Shown: piece by piece, positions 3,151 through 22,854 of the stretch
Position numbering within the stretch: position 1 is the stretch's first letter
Layout: each line of letters starts with the position of its first letter
Assembly: GCA_963848135.1 (NCBI GenBank)
Contig: CAWKCK010000004.1
Coordinates: forward strand, 1-64,000
DNA: 64,000 nucleotides
Source: an uncultured delta proteobacterium
GTDB lineage: Bacteria; Desulfobacterota; Desulfobacteria; Desulfobacterales; SG8-13
Reading direction: 5' to 3'
Position numbers and translations under genes: made by a program
The notes under the pieces: model-generated
Seen by the model: the letters and a program-made list of their open reading frames with translations, nothing else
Databases searched by the model: none
Told to the model about the DNA's origin: nothing

Positions 3151-4326
3151 ATGTCTGCAAGCAATAACCTATCCGAAAACACCGATGGTGGTGGTATATA
3201 CATCCACGTGCCTTTTTGCCTCAGAAAATGCCGTTATTGCAATTTTTATTCTGTTTCCGACGTGTCGTTGCAGCCTCGATACTTGGAGGCACTTATTAAT
3301 GAGATGAAATTGACCGCCGATGTTCACGCGGGCATGGAATTTGACACACTCTATATTGGTGGCGGTACCCCGTCGGTTCTGGATGACGATTGTCTTGCCG
3401 ATATTATCGCCTCGGCCCACACGATATTCGCCATAGGGCCGGGCGCCGAAGTGACCATTGAAGTTAATCCCGGGACGATCGGCCGCGACTCCTTTCGTCG
3501 ATACCGTTCTTTCGGCGTCAACCGGGTCAATATCGGTGTGCAGTCCTTTCAGGAACACAACTTGAATTTTTTGGACCGGATCCACACTACCGGAGAGGCC
3601 GAGAGCGCATTGGCATGGGCACGCAACGCCGGATTCGAAAACATTGGTTTCGATTTGATTTACGGTATTCCCGGCCAGACAGTTGAAAATTGGAAACAGG
3701 ATCTTGAAAGAGCCGCTGTTCACCACCAGCCAGACCATCTGTCTTGCTACACTCTTAGCTATGAACACGGAACACCGCTTGGAAGGGACCTGGCGAAAGG
3801 CAGGTTAACCCCGGCAGATGAAGATCTTGTGGCACAGCTTTACCTGACAACCGTTGAGGTGCTGCAGCGCTGCGGATATGAACAGTACGAGACATCCAAT
3901 TTTGCCCGCAACCTTGCGTTTCGGTCACGCCACAACTGCAAGTACTGGTATTTTTCCCCTTACCTGGGTTTGGGGCCTTCCTCGCATTCGTTCTTACCGC
4001 CCGAACGCTCATGGAACAAAGCGGACCTCTCTGCTTATCTTGAGGATCTCGAGCACGGTCGCCGCCCGGTTGCCGGGCGGGAGGCCCTGAGCCGTGAACA
4101 GCTGATGATCGAAGCCGTCTATCTCGGTCTGCGTTTGTGTGATGGGGTTGATATTGCCGGCTTCGAAAGGCGTTTCGGGGTAAAATTCGAGACGCAATTC
4201 GAGCGACCGCTATCGGTTTACGCGCCGGCGGGCATGCTGGAGGTCATCAACGGCAGATGCCGCTTAAACCCTCGAGGCATGCTGCTGCTCGACAGCATTG
4301 CCTCTTCTTTCATCGATCGGATCTAA
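3151..4326 (+). CDS. hemW: Radical SAM heme chaperone HemW (HemN-like)
   Basis: IYIHVPFCLRKCRYCNF (CxxxCxxC), IGGGTPS, YETSNFA, HNxxYW; start position approximate. Confidence 0.88.
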   Translation: MSASNNLSENTDGGGIYIHVPFCLRKCRYCNFYSVSDVSLQPRYLEALINEMKLTADVHAGMEFDTLYIGGGTPSVLDDDCLADIIASAHTIFAIGPGAEVTIEVNPGTIGRDSFRRYRSFGVNRVNIGVQSFQEHNLNFLDRIHTTGEAESALAWARNAGFENIGFDLIYGIPGQTVENWKQDLERAAVHHQPDHLSCYTLSYEHGTPLGRDLAKGRLTPADEDLVAQLYLTTVEVLQRCGYEQYETSNFARNLAFRSRHNCKYWYFSPYLGLGPSSHSFLPPERSWNKADLSAYLEDLEHGRRPVAGREALSREQLMIEAVYLGLRLCDGVDIAGFERRFGVKFETQFERPLSVYAPAGMLEVINGRCRLNPRGMLLLDSIASSFIDRI

Positions 4327-15956: not shown

Positions 15957-17114
15957 CTAGACCTTACGGTACATCATCGGTGTGACAACTCTTGAAACCG
16001 AAGCTGTTAATTTTTGAAAATAATGACGGACATAATGATTAACTATTTGGTAATATATAGAAATCCTGTCGCGGAGACGTTCTTTCATTTTAAGGTGGAT
16101 AATTTTTTCATCAATATAGGCCCCCGCCAGGTCAAGGAAATGACTCTTTCCACAGAGCAAACTAATAATTCTGTTGAATGCTTCAGAAACAAGTGAATCC
16201 ACTTGAGGGTGTGCTTTAATTTTTTGTAAAACTTCTACTGGCAGGTCGGTACCAAGCAGTTGATGGGATAATAAAAGACAGAGAAAAAGAATTCGTTGTG
16301 TTCCGCAAGTACCGGTCCGATTAATGACAGTTGGCCAATCCAAGTTGTGATGAATAACAATCAGATTTGCAATATCACTAATCTGAGAAAGTTTGTTCTT
16401 ATTAACAAAGAAATCTTTTGCAAAATTAACACTGAGGATTATTAACGTGTCTTCGATTGAAAGGCCTGGTGATCGAAAGGTACTAAATTCCGTCGGTTGC
16501 TGTCGATTGAAAAGTTGTAAGAAATCTAATTCAGTATAGAGACCGTGGTAGTCGAACCTTTGATGGAGGTCGACATTAATTTGGCTGAGTTCATGCTGAA
16601 AACCGGCCTCAAATCCAAAGTCATTTATTTTATTGTAGCCGAGTCTGCTTAAAGCGTTCTGGGCGCGATAATAGTCATTCTCGTGGACGAGGAGATCAAG
16701 ATCATTGAATTGCCGCAGAGCGATATTATCGTAAATCGAAATGGCCGATATGGGGCCTTTAAAAAAAATGATGGGAATTTTAAACCTCTTGAAGTACTCC
16801 GATATTCTTGAAAGTTCTCTTTCAAATACCTTATTATGTATTGTGTTTTGGTGAAACCAGTTACGAAGACGATCTAAAACATAAGTAGGTACAACTGTTG
16901 AAAAGTTTTCGGCAATATTTCTATATACAAGCGGGAGCACGCGATGCTGATCGGCTGTGTCAACAAAAAATGCCCAATCTAACGCTTCTGCAAGGAGGTT
17001 CTCTATTCGTTGTTTCTCTTTCGGGCCTATGTGGATTCGGGCCAAACTGATAATTAGGTGGATCTCAGGGCGAATAGTCTTTAAATTCTCATCTGAAAAC
17101 GACATGATACCCAT
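15957..17114 (-). CDS. Nucleotidyltransferase family protein (NTP_transf_5-like), RiPP tailoring
   Basis: HRVLPL, FKGP..A..IY....LRQFNDLDLLV (DxD), VDLH; last gene of the lasso-type operon. Confidence 0.8.
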   Translation of the reverse strand: MGIMSFSDENLKTIRPEIHLIISLARIHIGPKEKQRIENLLAEALDWAFFVDTADQHRVLPLVYRNIAENFSTVVPTYVLDRLRNWFHQNTIHNKVFERELSRISEYFKRFKIPIIFFKGPISAISIYDNIALRQFNDLDLLVHENDYYRAQNALSRLGYNKINDFGFEAGFQHELSQINVDLHQRFDYHGLYTELDFLQLFNRQQPTEFSTFRSPGLSIEDTLIILSVNFAKDFFVNKNKLSQISDIANLIVIHHNLDWPTVINRTGTCGTQRILFLCLLLSHQLLGTDLPVEVLQKIKAHPQVDSLVSEAFNRIISLLCGKSHFLDLAGAYIDEKIIHLKMKERLRDRISIYYQIVNHYVRHYFQKLTASVSRVVTPMMYRKV

Positions 17115-17115
17115 A

Positions 17116-19049
17116 TCATGATACCTTTAGAAGGCCGTCACTCGTTTCGTTTATTTTCAACGAAAAATTAACTGCTGCTGTAGCTTTTTTGTCACTCATA
17201 TCCGCCAATTTAGGGTTAGAATCAAATTGCGCATGCCACGAAGCGGCATAGCGACCCTTCATTGCCAATAATTCATCATGGTGACCCGATTCGACAATTT
17301 GACCTGCGTCCATTACATAAATTAAATCGGCATTCTTAGCGATGGTCAAGCGATGCGTAATGAGTATCGACGTACGCCCTGCAGCCAATTTCTGGAAGCG
17401 GTCGAACCAATCCATTTCACTCCAGGAATCTATCAAGCTCGTCGGCTCATCGAGTATCATGATTGGGGAATTTCTTAGATAGGCTCGAGCAAGCGTCAGT
17501 CGTTGTCTCTCCCCCCCGCTGATATTGCAGCCTTCGGGAAAATATTTACCTAAAAGGGTATCGTAGCCTTTCGGTAATTTTTTAATAAAATTATGGGCCC
17601 CAGCTTTTCGAGCTGCCTTTTCAATTTCAGCAGAGCTAAATTCGGAATTTAAATCGCCAATACCAATATTGTCTGCTGCTGTGGCCACGTGTACCAAAGG
17701 AAATTGAAACATGGCTGAAATCATACGACGGTAGTTAATTACCGAAAAAGACCTTATGTCGTGACCATCAACTTCGACAGAACCGGCGTCAGGATCATAG
17801 AGCCGGCAAAGCAGTTTCATCAAGGTCGTTTTTCCGGCACCATTAGCGCCAACAATGGCGACAATTTTACCTGCTGGGAAAGAGCAGGTGAAATTTTTTA
17901 GTGCCGTATTTTTACTGCCTGGATAACTAAATGTGACCTTACGGAAAGAAATTCCTTTTTTTAAACAGGATGGCGCTGAGATGGGATCTTTAGGTTCGGC
18001 AACATGGGGCTTTAATTCCAAAAACTCAAACAACCTTTCCAGGAAAAGAGTACTGTTATATACGTTTCCAATGTTCCCTATAAATGATGCCAGCAAACCC
18101 TGCCCTTTATTAAAGACCTGATAAAAAAGAGCCAAATCCCCTAAAGTCACTAGTCCTGAAAGGCCCGCCAAACCATCCAGGCCAATGCTCCGCTGGAAAT
18201 CAACAAACCAAATACGCTTGCCCAAAGTCGTGAAAAACCCTGCTTCTTAATGAGGTCAAGCTTCTCCTTACGAAGGACGCTTCGAAGGTCATGATACGCT
18301 TTTTGAATATAGGGACCAAATTCGAAAAGTCTTAATTCGGCGGCAAACACATCCTCGGTTAGGACGGAATCATAATAGTCAACCCAGCGCCGATTGGTGG
18401 TTGACTGTTTCCACCAAATATGAAAGCGTCTATTTGTTCGCAAGAGTACGTAAAAGGCTGGCAAAGTACTGCCGATAAGCACAAATGGCAACCAAACACC
18501 ATAGGGTATCAATAGAGCCCCCATCGATAACACAGTAATACCACTCTGAATCAGACCCCCCAAATTTTCCAGCAAAGTCAGCGGTCTGTTTTTTAGATCG
18601 TTGCTGACTTGATGCAGCCGGTCCAAACAATCAGGAATTTCGTAAAAGGACAGGTCAAAGCTAACTGATTTGGCATGAATCAAACTGCTTATATAATCTC
18701 CGGTTTGTTCAGCCTGGGCGGTACGCACCCATGTCATGGCGATCTGAAGTATGTGGGTAAGAGACAAAAGCCCCCCCATCAAGGAAGCCTGCAAGAAAAC
18801 AGGTTTTATGTTTTCCCAAGATGCGCCTGTGCCGACGACGGCTACTAAACTGTCAACCAAAATACGAGTTAAGTATACAACTGCGACTGGAACAAAACCC
18901 TGAAATATAAGAAGGATAGCCCAGAAAAGAGACAAGGTTCTGTTTGCCGTCCAAATGAGCTTTAAAGTTTGAGGAAGAAAAGATAGTTGTAAGATGATTT
19001 TACTAATCATTGATTTAAAGATAATGGACATAAAATTCTTATTCTTCAC
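17116..19049 (-). CDS. Peptide ABC exporter (TMD+NBD), split by a single-base frameshift near 18155
   Basis: TMD in ORF 18150-19049. NBD (GANGAGKTT, ISGGERQR, ILDEPT) in ORF 17116-18225. Adding one G at mRNA ttt-cag-g(g)a-cta restores RAFQGLVTLGDLALFY. Confidence 0.85.
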
Positions 19050-19061
19050 GAGGATTGTCTT

Positions 19062-20006
19062 TTAATATTGACCTTCAATCTGACAGGCCACCTCCGGCAA
19101 TATTTGCATAGATCTGGGTCTCTCTAAACGGAATACCGATGTACGGTTAACCAGTTTAGTGCACTGTTTAAAATGGTTTGAGAGGCCGAGATTTCGAAGA
19201 AATTCCGTACCGAAGCGTGCGCCATACCAATGAGGCATCAGACCCAAAAGGGCCTGCTGAGGTTGGAGCGTATTCACGGTCGTTTCGGGACCATTCTCTA
19301 AAATATAAATACTTTTGAGTGGCAGGGCTGTTTCTGAAAAACCATTAAAAAGACGATAGCTGCGTTTATCCAGTTCCGGTCGAAGCCGAGGCAAAGTGTC
19401 TGGGGAAAAACCCAAGGATTCTATGGAATCAGGCCAAAGCTTGAGATGCGGAAAGCCGGGAAGAGCGTTAACGTTACCTTCACTGATGTCAACCGCAAGG
19501 ATATCATCAGCGATTAATGTGTGCCCACGTCTGTGAAGTGTCCCGGCAATAGTTGATTTGCCGGCACCTTTATCGCCAACGAAGGCTATCGCCGCGCCAT
19601 TCATTGCCACGACACTTGCATGTAATACGATCGTATTTCTCCGCTGGTGAAGCAACATTGCCAGTGAGGTACCTAAAATAAAAAGACGTATGATACGCTC
19701 TTCTACCCCTTGAAATGGGTCTACAACCATTTCACAACCATTCCGAACCAAGAAGGCACCCACTCCTTCCCATGCGAGGTAAATACCATGGTCGGTCGCG
19801 TTATAATAGCTATAACATCCTGATGCTTCAGCAGGCATGTCTTCGATTATTCCTTTTCGAATAAACACATTTGCTTCGTCATCACTGGTGGTAAGTTCTG
19901 GTAAATAAAAATCTGAATATATAGTTAGGCCGTATGCCTTATACTTGTGGGAGTATTCAGATTTAGGATGAAAACGATATTTTTCTGAATAAGAATTTGC
20001 CAACAT
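19062..20006 (-). CDS. HPr-kinase-like lasso peptide kinase (PadeK/ThcoK type)
   Basis: LHASVV catalytic His, Walker A GDKGAGKST, IADD, LKLWPD; adjacent to a precursor ending in Ser. Confidence 0.85.
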   Translation of the reverse strand: MLANSYSEKYRFHPKSEYSHKYKAYGLTIYSDFYLPELTTSDDEANVFIRKGIIEDMPAEASGCYSYYNATDHGIYLAWEGVGAFLVRNGCEMVVDPFQGVEERIIRLFILGTSLAMLLHQRRNTIVLHASVVAMNGAAIAFVGDKGAGKSTIAGTLHRRGHTLIADDILAVDISEGNVNALPGFPHLKLWPDSIESLGFSPDTLPRLRPELDKRSYRLFNGFSETALPLKSIYILENGPETTVNTLQPQQALLGLMPHWYGARFGTEFLRNLGLSNHFKQCTKLVNRTSVFRLERPRSMQILPEVACQIEGQY

Positions 20007-20024
20007 AAAGTCATCTTCCTATAT

Positions 20025-20053
20025 ATTATTTGATTGAATTGATACCGTAAGTA
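20025..20053. repeat. Left arm of the 29-bp inverted repeat enclosing the precursor gene
   Basis: ATTATTTGATTGAATTGATACCGTAAGTA; 28/29 identical to the reverse complement of 20299-20327. Confidence 0.9.
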
Positions 20054-20093
20054 ATTTATTCTGTTTATTCTTGCAAAACTAAGAGATCGTCCC

Positions 20094-20252
20094 TTAACTA
20101 CCGCAAGGTGGCCTGCGTCGACCGCCATCGTTTTGTTTGCCCCCCCGGCCGTCACGAAAATCGAAGTCGCCCCAATCAAAACCTCTTGTTTGCGTAATAC
20201 TTTTTACGTCTCCATGGATAGTCAATTTTGGTGTGTCATAAGTCTTTTTCAT
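20094..20252 (-). CDS. Lasso-type RiPP precursor peptide, 52 aa (not in ORF track): MKKTYDTPKLTIHGDVKSITQ-TRGFDWGDFDFRDGRGGKQNDGGRRRPPCGS
   Basis: Translated by hand. AAGGAG RBS 7 nt upstream of the ATG; leader YxxPxLxxxGxxxxxT; Asp at core position 8; C-terminal Ser; lies between B2 and the kinase. Confidence 0.9.
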   Translation of the reverse strand: MKKTYDTPKLTIHGDVKSITQTRGFDWGDFDFRDGRGGKQNDGGRRRPPCGS

Positions 20253-20298
20253 GGTCTGTCTCCTTAAAACTGAAATGGATTCAATTCAAAGCGAGTTC

Positions 20299-20327
20299 TA
20301 CTTACGGTATCAATTCAACCAAATAAT
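20299..20327. repeat. Right arm of the 29-bp inverted repeat enclosing the precursor gene
   Basis: TACTTACGGTATCAATTCAACCAAATAAT. Confidence 0.9.
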
Positions 20328-20370
20328 GAATCCAAAAATGCAGAACGACCGACAAGAAACCACTATACAT

Positions 20371-20790
20371 TCACCCCAAGGACAGCAGAGCATATTTCTG
20401 GTAAAGCTCTGATTTTGAGCCACCGATTACAACAATACCATCACTTTCTGTCCAGGCATGTGCTTCAAAATTACCAAATTCATTCCGAGCAACTCCGATA
20501 CGAAATGTTGCCGGAAAAGTAGAAGATTTTAGCAATACAAAGGCTGCCAAGGCTTGCGTCAGACAGGTCGCTCTTGGCACATAGCGACTCGCACTAGCCA
20601 CATTAACGGCAATGTTTTTGATGTATACGTGTTTTTTCATTTTATGCTTAGCTGGCTTTGAAGGTATTTTATTTATTAAAGTCTGTACGATATGGAACGG
20701 CAAGAGCCATAAAGAAAGCCTGATAGTGCAAAGAAGAAATAATGTTTGGAGAAGGTGGTAATAGTGTGAAAAACTTTTTAATTTATTCAT
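20371..20790 (-). CDS. Lasso peptide biosynthesis B2 protein (leader peptidase, transglutaminase-like)
   Basis: ATCLTQALA catalytic Cys, RIGV, AHAWTE His, VIGG. Confidence 0.9.
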   Translation of the reverse strand: MNKLKSFSHYYHLLQTLFLLCTIRLSLWLLPFHIVQTLINKIPSKPAKHKMKKHVYIKNIAVNVASASRYVPRATCLTQALAAFVLLKSSTFPATFRIGVARNEFGNFEAHAWTESDGIVVIGGSKSELYQKYALLSLG

Positions 20791-20793
20791 TAA

Positions 20794-21096
20794 TCAATCC
20801 CTAACTTCAATGAGCCCTTTACTTGACAATTGTCGAATCAACTCATAGAGATCCTGTTCACATCGAACAAAGCCAACTTCATACTCAGAGAGGATCGCAT
20901 CTCGTATATCTTCCATTGCTTTAGGTTCCTGGATTAATTCCCAAATTCGCGCGCCAACATGGTCAAGACCAAAATACATTCCAGTTTTCGGATTGAGTAT
21001 TGCAACTTCGTTTGGCATTTCAGACGCGATTGGTTCTTTCGCCGCAATAATCACCGATGAATTAGAAAGGGTACTTTTTGACGACGCTGAATTCAT
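20794..21096 (-). CDS. PqqD-family RiPP recognition element (lasso B1)
   Basis: ILNPKTGMYFGLDHVGARIWELIQEP, EYEV...CEQDL...L...GLIEV; 100 aa. Confidence 0.9.
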   Translation of the reverse strand: MNSASSKSTLSNSSVIIAAKEPIASEMPNEVAILNPKTGMYFGLDHVGARIWELIQEPKAMEDIRDAILSEYEVGFVRCEQDLYELIRQLSSKGLIEVRD

Positions 21097-21242
21097 ACTT
21101 ATTTCTCCCTATGCTTGTCGAATTTTGGGTACTTGGAAATACTATTCTAATATTATAGAAACGTAATGACGAAAAATTAATCAGGGTACATTCATAAGAA
21201 TAGTAAAATAATGATTTTTTTAAAAAGATTATTGGTCTTATC

Positions 21243-21258
21243 TGCAATTAAAATGCCA
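21243..21258 (-). promoter_or_regulatory. Putative sigma54 (-24/-12) promoter of the RiPP operon
   Basis: Minus strand reads TGGCAT-TTTAA-TTGCA with canonical spacing, ~150 nt upstream of the B1 start. Confidence 0.7.
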
Positions 21259-21343
21259 TTATGCCCAAACGTAATATAATGGCCTGAAATAAATATAAAA
21301 TAAAATATTTTTTATGTTTAATTGGTATGGTCAGTTTTTTTAT

Positions 21344-21363
21344 TTGTGAAAGTAATTTCACAA
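21344..21363. promoter_or_regulatory. Palindromic regulator site (possible enhancer/UAS)
   Basis: TTGTGAAA-gtaa-TTTCACAA ~90-105 bp upstream of the -24 box; the same palindrome occurs at 63464-63483. Confidence 0.6.
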
Positions 21364-21690
21364 TAATGTTAATGCTTCGATACTTTTATATGTATTTTTT
21401 AACCCACTGATGTCGTTTACTTAGAAACTTTGAATTTGCTTGTTTTTGATTGTACGAGATAGGAAGGAGAGCAGAATGAAAGTTTGTTTCAAGGGGATAA
21501 AATAGTCACATAGAGAAATACAGGTAGAAGACAATAAATGGCTGAAACAAATAAAAGGAGCATATCTTTCAAGAAAGGAAAACGAATGCGTTTTGGAATT
21601 CTGAGCTGGTTTCCACAGGCTGTATTTTGCAAATTGTTATGGCAGTCTCGCGTATTTATTTTCTATATAATTTCAAGCAAAAATTAATGC

Positions 21691-22854
21691 TTACGGATTC
21701 GGCCGAACGTACCGCAGCAATAACAACCCGAACAGGGTTGCCCCGCCCAGGATGCCGATGCCCCAATTGAAACTGCCAATATCACCGGAATAGCCGATCA
21801 GGGTCGGAACCATCCCGGCACCGAAGAAATAACTGAAAGGAACGGTCAACGCCACAGCCATGTTGCGATTTTTGTCTGTAGTGATACGCGACAACACGGT
21901 AAATCCCAACGGGAAGAAACAAACGCTGGTCGTGGCTTGCAAGGCCAGGCTTACCGCCAGCAAACCCAAGGGCAGGGTTGCGATGGAAAAAGTGGCGACA
22001 GCGCTAGCGGCCACGCTTGCGAACAAAGTTTTCTTCAATCCGTATCTGTCGGCTAACCAGCCGGTCAACAGGGGCATCGCAAAGGCAACGACCCGAGACA
22101 CCGACATCAAATGATTAGCCTGGGTGGAATCCAACTGCCGCTCGGCTGTGAGATAGAGGGCCATGATGTTGAACAGTCCCTGATTTACGCCGATTGCAAG
22201 ACTAAACAGCAGAATCATGATCCAGATGGCCGGGTTGGACAGCAAACGGCCAATGCTGGCCATACTTGGCGCCTCGCCATAGGCCCTGTCGGTTTTACCC
22301 AGCAATTGGAAGAGTATCCCGGCCAATAGTGCGGAGACACCATAAACTGCCAAGGTGAAGCGCCAGGGATGTTGATGCAAAAAAAAATCGGCCAATAACG
22401 GGGAACAGATATAGGCAAGATTGGGGGCTAACTGATGAAAGGATAGCACCTTGCCCCAATGCTGACGGTCGACCAGGGATGTCAGGGTGGCCACGCCTGA
22501 TGGCAGATAAAGCCCGCCGGCGATTCCCAATACGACCAGTGTTCCTCTCAGCGACCACAGGTTGCTGGTGAACGACAACACCAGCAGACTCGTTCCAACG
22601 GCGATCGAAGACAGAACGATCTGGTGCTGTTGGCAAATACGCCCCGAGATGAAGGTGGAGCCGAAAAGGCCGCTGCCGTACCCCACGGAGACGAAAAGAA
22701 AAAGTGAACCGGCTGCCGTATGGCTCAGATTAAGCTCGTGCCCGATGTCGGGCAGAAGCGGCGCCAGGCCAAGTCGAGAGAGCATGTTGAGAAAGAAGAT
22801 GAGAAAAATGAATACTATCGTCCCGGGTACACCCCGACGGGTCTCCGGCATCAT
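21691..22854 (-). CDS. MFS transporter
   Basis: About 12 hydrophobic segments, GWLADRYG motif, APLLPDIGHELNLS. Confidence 0.85.
   Translation of the reverse strand: MMPETRRGVPGTIVFIFLIFFLNMLSRLGLAPLLPDIGHELNLSHTAAGSLFLFVSVGYGSGLFGSTFISGRICQQHQIVLSSIAVGTSLLVLSFTSNLWSLRGTLVVLGIAGGLYLPSGVATLTSLVDRQHWGKVLSFHQLAPNLAYICSPLLADFFLHQHPWRFTLAVYGVSALLAGILFQLLGKTDRAYGEAPSMASIGRLLSNPAIWIMILLFSLAIGVNQGLFNIMALYLTAERQLDSTQANHLMSVSRVVAFAMPLLTGWLADRYGLKKTLFASVAASAVATFSIATLPLGLLAVSLALQATTSVCFFPLGFTVLSRITTDKNRNMAVALTVPFSYFFGAGMVPTLIGYSGDIGSFNWGIGILGGATLFGLLLLRYVRPNP

Follow-up and report, generated by a model that had tools for sequence, protein, structure and literature searches.

An inverted repeat enclosing the precursor gene of a kinase-containing peptide cluster: a probable long-range mRNA stem around a single cistron

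In gene clusters for peptide natural products, a single operon has to yield precursor in large excess over enzyme, and the locus described here raises the question of whether such a disproportion can be built into the operon transcript itself. In the 64,000-nucleotide stretch of DNA that was analysed (referred to throughout as the window), a minus-strand cluster with the order B1-B2-A-K-D-N contains a small precursor gene, A, that is bracketed by a long inverted repeat. What does this repeat do, and does it act as DNA or as RNA? The features that bear on the question are collected in Table 1. The cluster stands apart from its surroundings in base composition (G+C of ~0.40, against ~0.53 in the flanks), and a DNA search of 40 related genomes did not find the cluster DNA in any of them, the sole match being 32 nt in one genome (G022).

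Table 1. Features of the cluster, of the predicted RNA structure and of related loci; positions are those of the window unless a locus is named.
Feature	Location	Strand	Basis
B1, PqqD-like leader-binding protein, first gene of the operon	20794..21096	-	PF05402, E = 5.3e-17
B2, transglutaminase-like leader peptidase, directly upstream of the 5′ arm	20371..20790	-	PF13471, E = 2.6e-20
A, precursor peptide gene, 52 aa, C-terminus ...PPCGS, inside the 245-nt loop	20094..20252	-	ORF list; leader conserved in relatives
RBS of the precursor gene, AAGGAG, in the loop	20260..20265	-	read from sequence
K, HPr-kinase-like gene, directly downstream of the 3′ arm	19062..20006	-	PF07475, E = 1.9e-8; 114 homologues
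Kinase Shine-Dalgarno sequence AGGAAG; kinase ATG	20015-20020; 20004-20006	-	read from sequence
D, ABC transporter, two overlapping ORFs (18150-19049, 17116-18225)	17116..19049	-	ORFs and profile search
N, NTP_transf_5 nucleotidyltransferase, last gene of the cluster	15957..17114	-	PF14907, E = 2.8e-49
5′ arm of the predicted stem, 29-nt core	20299..20327	-	repeat search; all 29 positions paired in MFE
3′ arm of the predicted stem, 29-nt core	20025..20053	-	repeat search and fold
Weak outer extension, 5′ side (helices 20334-20340, 20345-20347, 20349-20355)	20330..20355	-	window fold; not conserved
Weak outer extension, 3′ side; overlies the kinase SD in part, together with the ATG and the first codons	19997..20022	-	window fold
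Local hairpin (7 + 10 bp), predicted to overlap the precursor stop	20070..20107	-	fold
Overlap of cyclase stop and 5′ arm	L018 3506-3513, L016 794-801, L091 3523-3530, L093 3652-3654, L094 3636-3638

The core arms of the repeat are reverse complements at 28 of 29 positions, and a repeat search extends them to 42 nt each (20012–20053 and 20299–20340) with 83% complementarity and the same 245 nt between them. There are several features of the arrangement. First, the loop contains the precursor ORF, its ribosome binding site and untranslated sequence, and nothing else, as the preliminary description of this DNA had stated. Second, both arms fit between genes: the B2 stop codon lies 43 nt before the 5′ arm and the precursor ATG 46 nt after it, and the 3′ arm begins 40 nt past the precursor stop and ends, at position 20025, only 4 nt ahead of the kinase Shine-Dalgarno sequence. 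Third, the single mismatch in the core reads as G-U on the minus, coding strand (G at 20319, U at 20033) and as C-A on the plus strand, an asymmetry to which the preliminary description had drawn attention and which a reading of the sequence bears out.

The repeat is rare in both the window and the genome. Allowing three mismatches at most, a 24-nt arm pattern matches the window at two places, namely the two arms, where 100 shuffles give an expectation of 0.00. Within the 6.03-Mb genome there are 24 inverted repeats with a score of at least 20 and a loop of 40–500 nt; the precursor repeat is ranked sixth, and the majority of the others are members of multi-copy families. When the segment 20000–20360 was compared with the genome by BLAST, the locus itself and the arm-to-arm matches were recovered and no others, and neither a target-site duplication nor a direct repeat outside the arms was seen by eye in the window or the related loci. 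A MITE, present in many copies and flanked by target-site duplications, had been put forward as one alternative; the repeat is single-copy in 6.03 Mb and is therefore not a MITE, and we rejected a mobile element on the same grounds. A search of 19500–21800 against Rfam gave no relevant match at E values up to 1.

Folding of the minus-strand RNA, as the preliminary description had proposed, here over 19990–20360, gives the 29-bp stem in the MFE structure and again in the centroid (−109 kcal/mol; z = −5.9 relative to 100 shuffles), whereas the plus strand of the same region reaches a z score of only −2.75. Every one of the 29 arm positions is paired in the MFE structure of the window, with a mean pair probability of 0.99. 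Outside the core the fold adds a weak outer extension, and within the loop it forms a local hairpin over the precursor stop codon (Table 1). This hairpin is of the classical repeat type found after lasso precursor genes; no U run follows it, and no terminator-like site is called there.

Related clusters were reached through the kinase gene. The protein collection holds 114 homologues of the kinase, the nearest 69% identical, and an alignment of 45 of them led to 80 metagenome loci and 52 genome loci (the homologues P0002 and P0004–P0010, 58–68% identical in the alignment, are on contigs outside the scanned locus set). An ungapped inverted-repeat scan of the 690 nt that end 40 nt into the kinase gene was applied to 114 targets, comprising 113 loci and the window, with 19 of 133 omitted for having fewer than 300 nt upstream; nine targets stand clearly above their own shuffles. 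A second scan, of the sequence on either side of recognisable precursor ORFs, covered 54 loci and recovered the same 9 with a 23–29-nt repeat at the two equivalent sites, weak candidates in 2 and none in 43. The stem is missing from 43 of 54 related clusters and is therefore not needed by the peptide class. Nonetheless, arms in homologous clusters, whose absence the preliminary description would have counted against its reading, are present in eight further clusters, and their recurrence at the same intercistronic sites supports its claim that a duplex in the sense RNA is under selection.

The placement of the arms follows one plan at all nine loci. The upstream gene is followed by the 5′ arm, which is 36–62 nt ahead of the precursor start, and the 3′ arm lies past the precursor 3′ UTR, 8–48 nt before the kinase ATG. 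The stem appears in the MFE structure of the sense RNA in nine of nine cases (23–29 arm pairs, with mean probabilities of 0.92–1.0), and each loop, of 201–410 nt, holds the precursor cistron together with its RBS. Duplex energies range from −35 to −51 kcal/mol, and all of the duplexes run uninterrupted for at least 20 bp, with 29 bp including one G-U pair in the window and 23–29 bp at the other eight loci.

These nine loci belong to two families. Family 1 consists of the window, L011, L012 and L013, with kinases 68–69% identical and a common arm sequence of 23–29 nt (complementary at 26 of 26 positions in L012), and its upstream gene is B2. Family 2 consists of L016, L018, L091, L093 and L094, the last three of which carry record titles naming Anaerolineae or Caldilineaceae MAGs; its kinases are 52–56% identical, its upstream gene is a cyclase gene, and its 24–27-nt repeat has an arm sequence unrelated to that of family 1. 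A FastTree phylogeny of 25 kinase fragments recovers the two families as separate groups (support of 1.00 for family 1 and 0.98 for family 2), with L014, L015, L017 and L092 branching between them with poor support. With the intermediate branches so poorly supported, the stem may either have arisen twice or have had one origin followed by sequence turnover and loss.

The two weak candidates also have their arms at the equivalent sites. In L092 (2923–2938 and 3305–3320) the arms are complementary at 14 of 16 positions and represent a third sequence; the stem is in the sense MFE structure with 14 of its 16 pairs, at a mean probability of 0.78, and is missing from the antisense one. In L035 (995–1005 and 1327–1337) there are 11 perfect pairs and a few more, of different sequence again. 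L015, with a kinase 55% identical, has no long-range repeat, and inspection by eye reveals a short local hairpin just past its precursor stop. Two more distant clusters carry perfect inverted repeats: L045 has one of 15/15 (3635–3649 and 3736–3750) with an 86-nt loop about 190 nt upstream of the kinase, and L110 has one of 14/14.

At the boundary with the upstream gene in family 2, the stop codon of the cyclase gene falls at or within the first 8 nt of the 5′ arm (Table 1). Terminating ribosomes would therefore open the stem, which counts against the reading proposed below, and its formation could be linked to cyclase translation. At the corresponding boundary in two members of family 1, L011 (646–661 and 718–733) and L012 (1302–1317 and 1373–1388), a segment spanning the B2 stop codon has 75% complementarity to the 5′ arm, which is near the noise level, and represents a possible competing hairpin.

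Is it the sequence of the arms that has been retained, or their capacity to pair? Pairwise identities, calculated with one near-identical pair per family excluded, are 0.84 for the 5′ arm and 0.90 for the 3′ arm in family 1, compared with 0.53 in the upstream segment, 0.55 in the RBS spacer, 0.35 for the 3′ UTR and 0.57 for the stretch that separates the arm from the kinase ATG; within the precursor gene the leader is at 0.82 and the core coding region at 0.49 with many gaps. The arms of family 2 also score 0.84 and 0.90, against 0.56, 0.64 and 0.50 in the adjacent non-coding segments. By this comparison the arms are islands of conservation under purifying selection. They are conserved beyond what pairing needs, which leaves room for sequence-specific recognition.

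The same identities bear on two further explanations in which the arms act, or once acted, as DNA. One, akin to the swappable cassette named in the preliminary description, is that they are handles through which precursor cassettes are exchanged between clusters, so that arms and leader stay conserved around a hypervariable core. The family 1 values have the pattern that this predicts, core coding region and 3′ UTR being far more diverged than arms and leader, but fast-evolving cores are usual in such peptides without any cassette mechanism. Moreover, exchange requires homology that is flanking and not inverted, inverted arms leading instead to inversion; the arms have no other match in the genome; and a G-U bias on the sense strand, described below, is not expected of a DNA function. 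Inverted geometry and single-copy arms thus contradict the cassette, which we consider very unlikely. The other explanation is that the arms are two operators to which a DNA-binding regulator attaches, or else have no function and are what is left of a dead mobile element or of chance. High conservation of the arm sequence within each family is what an operator pair would show, yet the two families have unrelated arms at the same positions, compensatory changes preserve complementarity and not sequence, and there is no regulator gene in the clusters. A mobile element has the lack of other genomic copies and of visible target-site duplications against it, and a neutral remnant would not hold 0.84–0.90 identity with neighbours at 0.35–0.64. 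Of all the readings weighed here we give this one the least credence, and regard it as highly improbable.

Direct evidence on pairing comes from the alignments of the two arms. Standard pairs occupy 94.0% of cells in family 1 and 97.7% in family 2, and 25–63% when the partner column is slid. There are three compensatory pairs: one in family 1, which is C-G in two loci and U-A in two, and two in family 2, where A-U alternates with G-C, in one case by way of a G-U intermediate. The families have four and five sequences, and their covariation scores were matched by 28 of 500 and 14 of 500 shuffles, respectively, a moderate margin over the control. The stronger argument for pairing is the one between the families, whose arm sequences are fully replaced with length, complementarity and position kept.

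The departures from Watson-Crick pairing indicate which strand may matter. All such positions in the core are of transition type, and they yield G-U on the sense strand in nine events and C-A in three, a ratio of independent column events (counted manually) for which a one-sided binomial test gives p of ~0.07. At four of the nine loci the sense duplex has the greater stability, by 4–12 kcal/mol over the antisense one, and at a fifth it is slightly ahead; at three the two are equal and at one the sense duplex is the less stable. In L016 pairing as RNA is complete, at 27 of 27 positions, and only 23 of 27 are Watson-Crick matches, a pattern that suits an RNA helix and would make a poor DNA recombination site. 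The covariation analysis called for in the preliminary description has given compensatory pairs together with a lean towards G-U on the sense strand.

This pattern is also informative about a third DNA-level explanation, an inverton, in which a site-specific recombinase acting in trans would flip the 303-bp segment and so turn the precursor off, with the other genes staying on. Arms of 29 bp with 245 bp between them have the geometry of known invertible elements, the genome contains 23 tyrosine-recombinase matches, and recombination could make the arms evolve in concert and so imitate compensatory change. Several observations speak against it. First, precursor and kinase point the same way in nine of nine loci. 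Second, and more weakly, DNA contigs that cross the 5′ arm (20211–20361 and 20223–20448) and the 3′ arm (19935–20085) have the reference order without joints, at depths of 2–2.8 in one study and as assembled contigs, which drop rare variants. Third, there is no recombinase in the window, L013 or L093, and no dedicated invertase beside the segment in the cluster, the window or either of these two loci; the nearest match on the contig is at ~252 kb, and the sole serine recombinase match carries a stop codon. Finally, the arms tolerate up to four transitions in 27 positions (in L016), all of them G-U in the sense RNA, which weakens a DNA site and not an RNA helix. We regard inversion as unlikely.

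If the arms act in RNA, their position next to the kinase gene suggests one more role, that the stem mainly gates translation of the kinase and the genes downstream, either by occluding the start region or through coupling with the gene upstream. In the window this has some basis: the outer extension is predicted to pair over the kinase Shine-Dalgarno sequence, the ATG and the first codons, and the kinase start region has a predicted accessibility of 0.48 without the 5′ arm and of 0.32 with it. However, the extension is not conserved in relatives, the spacing from the 3′ arm to the ATG varies, and accessibility drops by at least 0.08 in only two of the nine loci (the window and L018) and rises in L011. 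We therefore rejected gating as the general function and think it quite unlikely to be the main one. The interpretation first offered for this repeat thus divides: selection on base pairing in the sense RNA is supported, and kinase gating is predicted for the window without holding for the group.

How the precursor gene is transcribed bears on what a stem in the mRNA could achieve. No sigma-70-like promoter is called on the coding strand in or beside the repeat, and a promoter of the precursor's own was rejected, there being no minus-strand promoter-like site at the repeat; the precursor therefore depends on the operon transcript, and its level relative to the enzymes is accordingly set after transcription. 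Promoter-like sites are found upstream of B1, at 21320–21292 and 21172–21144, at a frequency equal to that expected by chance. Parts of the window occur in five sequencing runs, four of which were mapped, as contigs. The sole RNA-library contig that maps to 19000–21200 is 151 nt long, with a depth of 2 and no differences, and lies at 20093–20243 inside the precursor ORF; it comes from a metatranscriptome with possible DNA carry-over and was retrieved with a query centred on the precursor gene. An RNase III gene is encoded in the host genome (G000:C3:504657-505037), and RNase III cuts perfect or near-perfect duplexes of 23–29 bp.

We therefore propose, with moderate confidence, that the repeat forms a long-range mRNA stem that isolates the precursor cistron and is probably an RNase III or nuclease-barrier element setting the stoichiometry of precursor to enzymes. 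The arms would pair within the polycistronic B1-B2-A-K-D-N transcript to form the 29-bp stem, so that the precursor cistron and its own RBS would be set off in the loop as an RNA domain of their own. In length the duplex matches an RNase III substrate, and it might be either cut or left in place as an obstacle to exonucleases. Cleavage at mid-stem would free a precursor RNA of ~270–300 nt, both ends of which would be held together and protected by the inner half of the helix, and would leave the B1-B2(-C) message with an unprotected 3′ end and the K-D-N message with an unprotected 5′ end; an uncut helix would still block exonucleases from both sides. In either event the precursor message would be expected to outlive the enzyme messages, giving more substrate peptide than enzyme from a single promoter. 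Cleavage may instead act on the precursor message in the other direction, destabilising it as in icaR (see below). A more specific form of the proposal, which we put forward only tentatively and think somewhat doubtful as it stands, is a cistron-excising 'panhandle', an mRNA equivalent of the stems through which rRNA is processed: one small ORF would be cut from the operon transcript as an end-protected mini-mRNA, setting substrate-to-enzyme stoichiometry, by a device that arose twice or survived complete sequence turnover.

Several known systems resemble this arrangement. Long-range RNase III processing stems flank 16S and 23S rRNA. The mRNA targets of RNase III in B. subtilis are typically long-range intramolecular duplexes spanning hundreds of nucleotides, according to the accessible text of one study (PMC11780869). 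The stem described here resembles both in joining segments hundreds of nucleotides apart, in a duplex of more than 20 bp, in enclosing a functional RNA and in the presence of RNase III in the host; it differs from them in enclosing a small protein-coding cistron within an operon transcript, and cleavage is in this case presumptive.

Within lasso clusters the known device is a local one. A terminator-like inverted repeat between gene A, which encodes the precursor, and the downstream genes is said, in the available portion of PMC5974421, to be present in many clusters. As far as that text describes it, it shares with the present stem the kind of cluster and the presumed uncoupling of precursor from enzyme expression, but it is a local hairpin downstream of A, whereas the arms here flank A and are 201–410 nt apart. 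The window arms, separated by 245 nt, accordingly do not form a short-loop hairpin lying wholly between A and the next gene.

Pairing across a single ORF has also been reported, in mRNAs from two other bacteria. In icaR of S. aureus, the 5′ and 3′ UTRs pair to give an RNase III substrate in which the message's own Shine-Dalgarno sequence is covered and expression repressed (PMC3868564, accessible text), and in hbs of B. subtilis a 14-bp interaction between the two UTRs modulates endonucleolytic cleavage by RNase Y (PMC5737220, likewise). Going by these parts of the two papers, the resemblance is that sequences upstream and downstream of one ORF pair. Unlike the icaR site, the precursor AAGGAG sits in the loop, 34 nt inside the 5′ arm, and unlike both examples the duplex is one of 23–29 bp and not a short motif, and the cistron is internal to an operon.

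We found no description of a repeat bracketing the precursor gene in the full-text literature on lasso peptides, RiPPs and bacteriocins, as represented mostly outside subscription journals; the preliminary description had likewise remarked that the architecture was unfamiliar from described lasso clusters, and no precedent emerged from the accessible texts. What we rate as new here is the apparent application of a long-range mRNA stem of the RNase III type to the stoichiometry of precursor and enzymes. A local hairpin after the precursor gene is the accepted device, and a stem enclosing the whole cistron would, if the proposal is correct, be a second and cleaner solution, as well as a rare case in which long-range mRNA pairing marks off an internal cistron. 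The stem could be of use in engineering, as heterologous yields from lasso clusters depend on this intergenic region (PMC5974421, in the part available), and it suggests a search rule for precursor genes, namely complementary segments flanking a small ORF.

The nature of the product is a separate matter. Paeninodin and pseudomycoidin are phosphorylated or glycosylated lasso peptides from clusters of the kinase type (PMC8498205, accessible portion). Their clusters, as presented there, have in common with this one B1, B2, an HPr-kinase homologue, a nucleotidyltransferase, an ABC transporter and a precursor ending in Ser (CGS in the present case), and differ in that neither the window nor L011–L013 contains a cyclase gene. 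Specifically, no asparagine-synthase-like cyclase gene (C) lies between B1 and N in the window, and none was detected in L011–L013 by tblastn with the L093 cyclase as query; elsewhere in the genome that query finds asparagine-synthase paralogues 25–27% identical, and nothing closer. There is one copy of lasso-type B2 in the whole genome. In the precursors of L011 and L012 the first Asp is ~10–11 residues past the likely cleavage site. The family 1 clusters may specify not a lasso but perhaps a linear peptide that is leader-cleaved and C-terminally modified.

Other observations were made in passing. The two transporter ORFs of the window overlap by 76 nt, and L013 has a single ORF of 644 aa in their place; the split may reflect a frameshift, a pseudogene or an error of assembly. 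The genome-wide census of inverted repeats brought to light several multi-copy families of short hairpins, with loops of 41–53, 92–98 and 171–172 nt (examples of census repeats are C5:176815-176917, C4:128469-128571 and C3:815680-815782), and a single-copy 38-nt repeat with a 434-nt loop at C2:267446-267955.
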